This document shows positions 3,632 to 5,290 of a DNA stretch of 64,000 bases, piece after piece. This stretch comes from a virus (lineage: Duplodnaviria; Caudoviricetes), in the IMG/VR virus record IMGVR_UViG_3300037067_001795, positions 9,772 to 73,771 of that record; one strand, 5' to 3'. The first letter of the stretch is position 1; each line of letters starts with the position of its first letter. Both the position numbers and the translations under genes were made by a program. The notes under the pieces are model-generated. The model was not told the origin of the DNA and did not search any database. It was given only the letters and a program-made list of their open reading frames with translations.

Positions 3632-3998
3632 CCCGCAAACTGTCTATCGGTTACACTTGCCGTTTCGCGGGATTTGGTTTGTGAGAAGCATCGCTGGTCT
3701 CGGTTACAACGCGCCTATCGCTTCTCGTTGGTTTGTCCTGACACGTTGTCCATCGGTTACAACGAGCACATCGTCAGGAGTTTGGATTGGGCTCTCAATG
3801 TGATGCTCGGTTGCATACGTACAATCGAGGGCCGTTTGTATTGGGGCTGTCCAGGTGCTCTTTCGGTTACAAGTCGATGATCGGACAGCCGTTGGATTGG
3901 GCCTAGCACCAGTCAAATCGGTTACAGGTTGATGTTCGCTAGGCTTTGTAAGGTGCCTGACAGGGGTGGAGTCGGTTACAATTCCCGTCTCGTCAGGC
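3632..3998 (-). ncRNA. Stem-loop TIGR-like guide array, downstream half (7 units)
   Basis: Plus-strand TCGGTTACA at 3647, 3700, 3753, 3807 (TCGGTTGCA), 3863, 3918 and 3972. Each copy has exactly 9 nt of unique sequence on both sides, bounded by CA and TCG, and is closed by a unit-specific 5-8 bp inverted repeat (e.g. GGCTGTCC/GGACAGCC, GCCTAGC/GCTAGGC). Confidence 0.9.
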
Positions 3999-4868
3999 TT
4001 TGTACGGTTTGAAGGGTGTATGAGTCCATTCCAGCCAGAGGTTCTTGAGTAGGAGTTTGGTAGCCAGCAGCATACCGTGACGGTGAGCGTGTCCACACTT
4101 CTCGCCAATACCTCCGCAGGTCATACACTTCTTCTTGGCTGGGTTCTTGCCCTTGCACTTGTCGCAGGGCTTCCACTCCCACTCTGGGTGTGTTTCGTGA
4201 GCCCTTATTTTAGCGTTCAGCCAACGTGTGCGGTACGGTCCCTCGCCGTTTTGCTTGATGATGTTTTCGCCTATCACGTAGGCAATGCTACGGCGTCGCG
4301 GACTGTAGCCGAAGTCAGTCCAGTCCTCTGCCGTCAGCTTGGTCACGGTCTTCTTGCCGCCACGGCTGCGCCACGAGGAACCCATCAGCGTCACATCGTC
4401 CTTCGTGTACGGTGCGCAGCCTAACCTACGCCACACCTTCGCGGGATTGGCATAGTTGTTCAGGTCACCGGTCTCGCCGATGATAACAGCCAACGACATG
4501 ATTCCGAAGCCAGCCTGCTCCGGCTCCGCGACCCACTTGGCCACGGGCATCCGCTTGGCCACACTGAGCATCTCCTTCTCGTAGATGGCCTGCTGCGCAT
4601 CAAAGCCGTCCACAGCCAAGCACGTGGTCATGATGAGACTACGGATCTCATGCTCGTCGCCCTCTATTACGCCCTTGATCACCTTGGTGGCTTCGCTGTA
4701 CAGCTTCAGCCGTTCGCTCTCCTTCAGTCCACTACTGTAGCCCATCGTTCCAGCCACGGTAGCTTGGAGCCTATTGGCGATCATGATCCTAGACTTGATC
4801 ACCCATGCTCGCTGTCGCTGCAAGGCTTGGAGTTCCGCGGACATGTCGGCCACTTCTTGCTTCTTCAT
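3993..4868 (-). CDS. TasA-like Nop/IS110 Tnp-domain RNA-binding protein (no RuvC/HNH), with Cys4 insertion
   Basis: Coiled coil LQALQRQRAWVIKSRIMIANRLQA; Transposase_20/Nop-like GFGIMSLAVIIGETGDLNNYANPAKVWRRLGCAP; C-terminal HAHRHGMLLATKLLLKNLWLEW. No N-terminal DEDD domain. Start chosen by AAGGAG RBS; alternative start 4883. Flanked by guide arrays. Confidence 0.85.
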   Translation of the reverse strand: MKKQEVADMSAELQALQRQRAWVIKSRIMIANRLQATVAGTMGYSSGLKESERLKLYSEATKVIKGVIEGDEHEIRSLIMTTCLAVDGFDAQQAIYEKEMLSVAKRMPVAKWVAEPEQAGFGIMSLAVIIGETGDLNNYANPAKVWRRLGCAPYTKDDVTLMGSSWRSRGGKKTVTKLTAEDWTDFGYSPRRRSIAYVIGENIIKQNGEGPYRTRWLNAKIRAHETHPEWEWKPCDKCKGKNPAKKKCMTCGGIGEKCGHAHRHGMLLATKLLLKNLWLEWTHTPFKPYKA

Positions 4869-4893
4869 AACAAACTCCTTCATAGAGTAAAAG

Positions 4894-5290
4894 GACTAGC
4901 AATTCGTGTTTCGGCTACACGGCAATAACCGCTAGTCTGAATGTTGTCGCGGTAGGCACGATCCCACTCGGTTACAAGACATCCGTCGCACTACCGCGAT
5001 TTAGTTTGTGCTGCTCAAGCGCATCTACGGTTTCATATCCAATTTCGAGCAGCGTTGGATCAGTGTGCCAAAACAGCAGTCGGTTACATCATAGCGATCG
5101 GCACAAGACGGTTGTTTTGGAAGAGCCTGTTCAAGAAAGAGTTCGGTTACACGCACCTCCTCGAACAGGCTGGTTGTTTTGGAAGAGCCCTTCAACCGAC
5201 CGATCGGCTACATTTCCACACTCGAAGGGCTCTAGTGTTTTATAGCCTGCCCAAAGTATTTATCGGTTACATTACCGGTGTCGGGCAGGC
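4894..5290 (-). ncRNA. Stem-loop TIGR-like guide array, upstream half (7 units)
   Basis: Loop motif at 4911 (TCGGCTACA), 4968, 5027 (ACGGTTTCA), 5080, 5143, 5204 (TCGGCTACA) and 5263. Same 9+9+9 geometry and unit-specific stems (e.g. AGAGCCCTTC/GAAGGGCTCT). Confidence 0.9.

Follow-up and report, generated by a model that had tools for sequence, protein, structure and literature searches.

The closest described relatives of the locus reported here are the TIGR-Tas systems, in which guide RNAs (tigRNAs) carry paired spacers. In tigRNA1 of TaTasR, a 5' half-repeat is followed by spacer A, a loop, spacer B and a 3' half-repeat, and the optimised synthetic target oligo of the same system has the reverse complement of spacer B immediately after spacer A (Faure et al., 2025, PMC12045711, Table S3). 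The two heteroduplexes formed by the stem-loop system PlTasA measure 9 bp each and lie on opposite strands (Guan et al., 2026, bioRxiv 10.64898/2026.08.11.744272; Faure et al., 2025, PMC12045711), gaps of 1-2 bp between the two halves are tolerated according to published TIGR work, and a nuclease-free Tas acts as a repressor (Xu et al., 2026, bioRxiv 10.64898/2026.09.09.750476). Natural targets and the gain of spacers are both called open by the field (Faure et al., 2025, Xu et al., 2026), and the locus described below bears on the second.

We analysed a 64,000-nt stretch of viral DNA (the window). It is part of C6, a 73.8-kb contig in a bin of 295 contigs and 4.85 Mb (G000). The window contains a stem-loop TIGR-TasA system of the kind described in 2025-2026, carried by a phage genome of about 72-74 kb: 14 stem-loop tigRNA units, seven on either side of a gene for a 296-aa, nuclease-free Tas protein, on the minus strand (Table 1). 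An initial annotation of this DNA had listed 14 18-nt targets for the guides between positions 3638 and 5280, each written as spacer A followed by the reverse complement of spacer B. A script rebuilt the same 14 strings in the same order, and in transcript direction the first spacer A begins at one of the two limits (5280) and the last spacer B ends at the other (3638). The geometry that had been assumed is the published one, as seen in TaTasR tigRNA1 and its target oligo. Under this rule, which we took from the TaTasR oligos and the PlTasA structure, the 18-mers are valid as predictions of the recognised sites.

Table 1. Position of the guide arrays, the tasA gene and the adjoining gene within the window
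Feature	Position	Strand	Evidence or remark
213-aa gene, no family assigned (Pfam, PHROGs)	5298..5939	(-)	ORF; directly upstream of array
Upstream stem-loop TIGR array, units 1-7 in transcript order	4892..5291	(-)	Layout, stem covariation, RNA folds
Loop repeats of upstream array, + strand starts	5263, 5204, 5143, 5080, 5027, 4968, 4911
Unit 1, spacer A	5272-5280
Unit 1, spacer B	5254-5262
tasA, 296 aa	3993..4883	(-)	AlphaFold2 + Foldseek
Downstream stem-loop TIGR array, units 8-14	3628..4000	(-)	Layout, stem covariation
Loop repeats of downstream array, + strand starts	3972, 3918, 3863, 3807, 3753, 3700, 3647
Unit 14, spacer B	3638-3646

Architecture of the arrays and the Tas protein

Read in the RNA sense, each unit runs from a variable 5' stem arm through CGA, a 9-nt spacer A, the loop, a 9-nt spacer B and UG to a complementary 3' arm. 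The resulting CGA-N9-UG..CGA-N9-UG layout is found in 14/14 units, with CGG in one, and every unit has its spacers at the loop offsets seen in unit 1. The 14 units can be aligned without gaps, both boxes and 6/9 loop columns being invariant; the loop repeat is UGUAACCGA-like, with four variant loops among the 14 units. The stems are unit-specific and palindromic: the six inner pairs are 85-100% paired, each with compensatory changes, and changes are seen on both sides of all eight stem pairs. The stem covariation score was 0.864 vs 0.18 after shuffling (0/500 shuffles reached the observed value) and at most 0.22 when the partner columns were slid against each other. The limits of the 9+9 spacers are fixed independently by two near-identical variants that differ exactly in both 9-nt windows. 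About 4/14 units have CUU directly behind the 3' stem arm, where a C/A-rich linker is the rule, and the stop codon of tasA coincides with the end of the 5' stem arm of unit 8, the first downstream unit. No orphan guide unit with a stem was found elsewhere in the phage contig, and a search of the locus against Rfam returned no family at E values up to 1. A CRISPR array was considered and rejected, given that the conserved elements here are 2-9 nt long and the spacers 9+9 nt, as against repeats of 25-36 nt with single spacers of about 30 nt, and that there is no Rfam match.

The 213-aa gene and the array are possibly co-transcribed. Upstream of this gene, a consensus scan alone, which is no proof of function, picked out minus-strand promoter-like sites at 6432-6405, 6311-6284 and 6123-6095. 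On the other side of the locus, two genes downstream of the array and also on the minus strand, lies a gene for a PD-(D/E)XK nuclease (window 2059-3186; PDDEXK_1, E 4.5e-12; phrog_1218 exonuclease), whose link to the guide system is doubtful because the neighbourhood is not conserved in a sibling phage.

The AlphaFold2 model of the Tas protein (pLDDT 90.5, pTM 0.84) consists of a coiled coil (helices 8-110) followed by a Nop/IS110-Tnp-like RNA-binding domain, with a Cys4 zinc-ribbon-like insertion (C240, C243, C253, C256) preceding the last helix. The best 10 PDB matches of this model in Foldseek were all TasH/TasR cryo-EM chains with probability 1.00 (9vzx, 21kl, 9w04, 9w02, 9w03 and 9mty; E 9e-6 to 3e-4), in agreement with the initial annotation's view of a TIGR-type system, and they were followed by the IS621 and ISCro4 recombinases (E about 0.02-0.04). 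Compared by sequence, Tas matched no solved chain in the PDB. Pfam returned no RuvC or HNH domain and no significant family, only a weak, sub-threshold match to the IS110 Transposase_20 HhH motif, while PHROGs returned phrog_4285 (E 2.9e-8) and no nuclease family. The protein has 436 homologues, conserved Cys/His columns are seen, and no search scored the Cys4 insertion as an HNH motif. Since the coiled coil starts at residue 8, the model leaves no room for an N-terminal nuclease, so that the protein is a nuclease-free Tas (TasA). An IS110 bridge-RNA recombinase was rejected as an alternative identity: there is no DEDD domain match, the protein opens with a coiled coil and its 14 guides are arranged in arrays.

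Spacer turnover among related phages

Two short contigs from other samples, L070 (1-1747) and L071 (1-1637), contain the same locus as window 3628-5291 and allow homologous units to be compared one by one. The tas coding sequences of these variants are 93-95.5% identical, with 4-5 amino-acid changes and differences at 11-18% of third codon positions, and the 10 nt on each side of the unit interior (box C to box D) are 90-94% identical between variants. The spacers of homologous units are identical at 123/378 positions (0.33, where random sequence would give about 0.25). After Jukes-Cantor correction, this amounts to about 1.7 substitutions per site in the spacers vs 0.12-0.2 at third codon positions, a difference that argues against neutral drift. 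The loops of homologous units are 77% conserved, which is below the flanks, and the replaced block may therefore be the whole hairpin interior. L070 lacks two units of the downstream array.

Other members of the family show both stability and change. A sibling phage recovered from two different samples (G001, L072) carries identical spacers in both. In the L019/L021 lineage, 93% identical over 19 kb, one unit is common and the positional homologues differ; this unit is the only case of spacers common to different loci. The pair L074/L077 has kept 8/9 + 8/9 spacer positions in the tas-proximal unit, and the neighbouring unit has the same stem and unrelated spacers. The presence of a kept unit beside a rewritten one indicates that change is discrete and proceeds unit by unit. 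Each spacer of the kept unit (L074:650-760 vs L077:1-110) shows one A/G transition between the two contigs; the A-to-G direction amounts to two data points and may or may not have meaning.

Altogether, these sequence comparisons indicate that guides are replaced in place, unit by unit, between near-identical phages. What is new here is that the hairpin scaffolds, meaning the stems, linkers and boxes, are kept at 90-94% identity while the spacers between them are near random. CRISPR-like growth at one end of the array is ruled out as the only mode of change; a fast, unit-wise process is indicated, which could be followed in time-series metagenomes. The TIGR literature consulted gives no account of in-place guide rewriting and calls spacer acquisition unknown. 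DGR-type mutagenesis was rejected, as the phage contig has no reverse transcriptase and the sole RVT_1 match lies on contig C10. A bolder idea, which we put forward tentatively and would not yet bet on, is that stem-loop TIGR arrays are an adaptive memory rewritten in place, one hairpin interior at a time, with stem and linkers untouched, so that the 14 guides would represent a recent, strain-specific record of the foreign DNA met by this phage lineage. The mechanism would then swap both 9-nt spacers, perhaps together with the loop, and the three-variant loci (93-95% identical) would make spacer acquisition testable.

The sibling phage G001 is a complete 73,385-bp IMG/VR genome with terminal repeats, patchily 65-86% identical to C6, and metagenome scans with the scaffold pattern and with the protein recovered this sibling only. 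C6 itself has direct repeats at its ends, bases 1-2099 vs 71,960-73,771 (the latter being the tail of the window, about 62,190-64,000), which are only about 90-92% identical and overlap over about 2 kb at about 91%; this would fit a circular or terminally redundant genome in whose assembly two co-occurring strain variants were joined. In G001, the 9-nt loop repeat recurs exactly at three places away from the arrays (G001:C1 28445, 62519 and 71993, minus strand); these copies failed the unit regular expression or its 4-bp stem filter, and in total the repeat occurs 12 times on the array strand and 0 times on the other, with about 0.3 copies expected per strand. Near its TIGR locus and upstream of tas, the sibling also encodes a protein with a 5-hmdU DNA kinase helical domain (PF18723; L072:1268-2149), next to a DNA polymerase gene of family A and one with HNH_3; judging by this gene content, the sibling phage may hypermodify its thymidines. 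More distant Tas relatives (at most 41% identity) are found on contigs of named genomes (L044-L069), about half of them Alphaproteobacteria and including a locus of Magnetospirillum molischianum DSM 120 (L063:8900-10750). Their stem-loop units have CCA as box C and UGxxxCCCA loops, and are nearer to the TaTasR motif than the window's clade is.

Target searches and the role of the guides

The reading that we favour, and consider rather probable as a whole, is that of a stem-loop TIGR-TasA system whose 14 guides direct transcriptional blockage of variable foreign or strain-specific targets. The minus strand would most likely be transcribed across both arrays and tasA, and processing would release 14 hairpin tigRNAs, each to be taken up by a TasA dimer. 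Within such an RNP, spacer A would anneal to one strand of the DNA and spacer B to the neighbouring 9 nt on the opposite strand. The recognised site would accordingly be 18 bp long and of the form A + rc(B), a gap of 1-2 bp between the halves being possible. With no nuclease domain in TasA, the RNP is expected to bind and block transcription, not to cut DNA. The targets would be variable foreign DNA, either competing mobile elements or strain-specific host loci, outside the sequence that was searched.

The initial annotation had expected the list of targets to reveal the function of the system, and had named native pairs matching no more often than shuffled A/B pairs as the refuting outcome. 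The comparison was run, and this is the outcome obtained in every space searched, so that the function cannot be read from the targets. Across the whole bin, with both half orders, gaps of 0-2 nt and both strands, native pairs gave 0 exact matches; with one mismatch there were matches for 1/84 native vs 18/1092 shuffled configurations, and with two mismatches for 21/84 vs 265/1092. Neither C6 nor G001, searched with their own and each other's guides, contains a native site at up to two mismatches, and the earlier impression, gained by eye, that the window holds no match extends in this way to the entire 73.8-kb contig. The 21 guides of the variants L070 and L071 matched the bin plus G001 at chance level, and the 292 guides of the family gave 0 exact matches in 0.65 Mb of related phage DNA, with native equal to shuffled. 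In IMG/VR, where 3/14 targets were searched, the three native patterns gave 0, 1 and 2 matches vs 0 and 2 for two shuffled patterns; 7/14 targets had no exact match in GenBank phages, where an exact 18-mer positive control was reported at E = 6. Published work warns of too many false positives from 18-nt queries in large databases, and these results agree with it; very large collections cannot be searched informatively with so short a sequence as an 18-mer.

Three individual matches were set aside. The lone gap-0 IMG/VR match of unit 9 (L040), located in the 3' end of a small HTH gene that neighbours a CI-like repressor, was treated as chance because shuffled patterns gave as many and no second guide matches the L040 contig at up to two mismatches. 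A unit 1 site at C2:4995 and a site for an L070 guide at C1:705544, each with one mismatch and a 1-nt gap, are within the expectation from shuffled pairs. The searches show only that the targets are not in the phage, the co-binned DNA, the related phages or the sampled databases, and the guides may still have targets elsewhere. Absence and turnover together make up the case for foreign, variable targets: fast turnover, the lack of a match to the phage or its kin and the near-uniform composition of the spacers together speak against conserved self-regulation or conserved silencing of host genes, and turnover by itself already makes both unlikely.

The alternative that survives best is that the guides silence host genes during infection and that the host genome was not among the DNA searched. 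Retargeted TasA and dead TasR repress chromosomal genes, and host silencing is among the roles proposed for these systems (Xu et al., 2026, bioRxiv 10.64898/2026.09.09.750476). The four same-genus genomes listed measure 0.9-2.0 Mb, and the 4.85-Mb bin, at more than twice the largest of them, is therefore better read as co-occurring DNA than as host; it is probably mixed, it may lack the true host, and no other bin contig shares sequence with C6. However, conserved host genes predict conserved guides, and tas variants that are 93-95% identical have unrelated spacers. The bin yielded no exact match and near-matches at chance level, target 1, the 1/14 examined there, is absent from 100 genomes related to the bin, and the 3.8-Mb genome of Magnetospirillum molischianum DSM 120 offers no exact site, at gaps of 0-2 nt, to the five guides of the distant relative that it carries. 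Host silencing is thus a minor candidate that we regard as unlikely, although worth keeping in view.

A second alternative is that the arrays are read from the plus strand, in which case the true sites would have their halves in swapped order. The box layout is nearly self-complementary, which places an A before each spacer on both strands, and a few stems have G.U pairs on the plus strand only, such as that of the unit with its loop at 3807, which pairs better on this strand. Mismatches in the stems of the family do not decide the strand by count (23 of G.U type vs 26 of A.C type), and for this reason both half orders were searched by script; the swapped order likewise gave matches at chance level in every scripted search. 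Four lines of sequence evidence (boxes, loop, family counts and folds) favour transcription from the minus strand, on which the initial annotation had also read the guides. Read on the minus strand, the boxes agree with those published for ParTasR and TaTasR, box C having 3 nt and box D being UG, and they occupy the published CCA/UG positions; the loop is TaTasR-like and departs from that of TaTasR at two positions. Among 33 related viral loci, the tas-sense strand carries 292 units of this layout vs 13 on the other strand. RNA fold z-scores for units 1-3 are -4.3, -2.7 and -3.9 on the minus strand vs -2.5, -0.6 and -0.5 on the plus strand, and the minus strand was better in 5/5 units tested. 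We consider a plus-strand reading improbable.

The spacers might also have no specific targets, being either unconstrained sequence or part of an RNP that does not recognise DNA in a sequence-specific manner. The base composition of the 28 spacers is almost uniform, with a GC content of 0.50 vs 0.55 for the phage, neither complementarity nor covariation was found between A and B within pairs, and no target match emerged anywhere searched, all of which would fit such a view. Set against it, change in the spacers is about ten times as fast as at third codon positions, which is not neutral drift, and the same phage from two samples has identical spacers. Moreover, spacers A and B share family-wide position biases, with G enriched at position 3 and C depleted at positions 1 and 9, as would fit two equivalent halves used in a symmetric RNP. 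The idea of spacers lacking specific targets is accordingly more improbable still. Least probable of all is control of the phage's own genes, and hence of its lifecycle, through imperfect sites in its promoters, a role proposed in the literature, since C6 has no native site within two mismatches and at three mismatches a site for one native pair vs about six predicted from shuffled pairs, single 9-mer spacers are not enriched in the phage on either strand (6 and 11 occurrences vs 8 +/- 3), and the guides are not conserved between near-identical phages.

Comparison with described TIGR and IS110 systems

Among the described systems, PlTasA from a Peromyscus leucopus gut contig (PMC12045711; bioRxiv 10.64898/2026.08.11.744272) likewise has a nuclease-free Tas with a coiled coil and a Nop domain, and we count its sub-arrays split around the gene and its 9-bp heteroduplexes on opposite strands as further likenesses. 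Unlike PlTasA, the Tas of the window has no detectable sequence similarity to any solved chain and carries a Cys4 insertion before the last helix, and the loop of its guides is a conserved 9-nt repeat, like a dual-repeat loop. MbTasA, BlTasA and dead TasR (Xu et al., 2026) resemble the window's system in that tas has stem-loop arrays on both sides and its coding sequence is touched by one of the units. In these systems, a nuclease-free effector carries out RNA-guided repression, and by analogy the same would be expected here. CUU at the base of the stem marks their processing site, whereas in the window's arrays it is present in only about 4/14 units. The window's clade also differs in having CGA as box C and a loop that reads UGUAACCGA, or UGAAACCGA in relatives of at least 45% identity.

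TaTasR (Faure et al., 2025; PDB 9mty) has a loop repeat that differs from the window's at 2/9 positions, and its fold is matched with probability 1.00. In contrast to the window's system, it has an active RuvC nuclease, fixed 36-nt tigRNAs and edge repeats instead of stems, and it cleaves DNA. The IS110 bridge-RNA recombinases IS621 and ISCro4 have the RNA-binding Tnp/Nop-like domain in common with the window's Tas, whereas the window's system has neither their DEDD RuvC-like domain nor a single two-loop bridge RNA.
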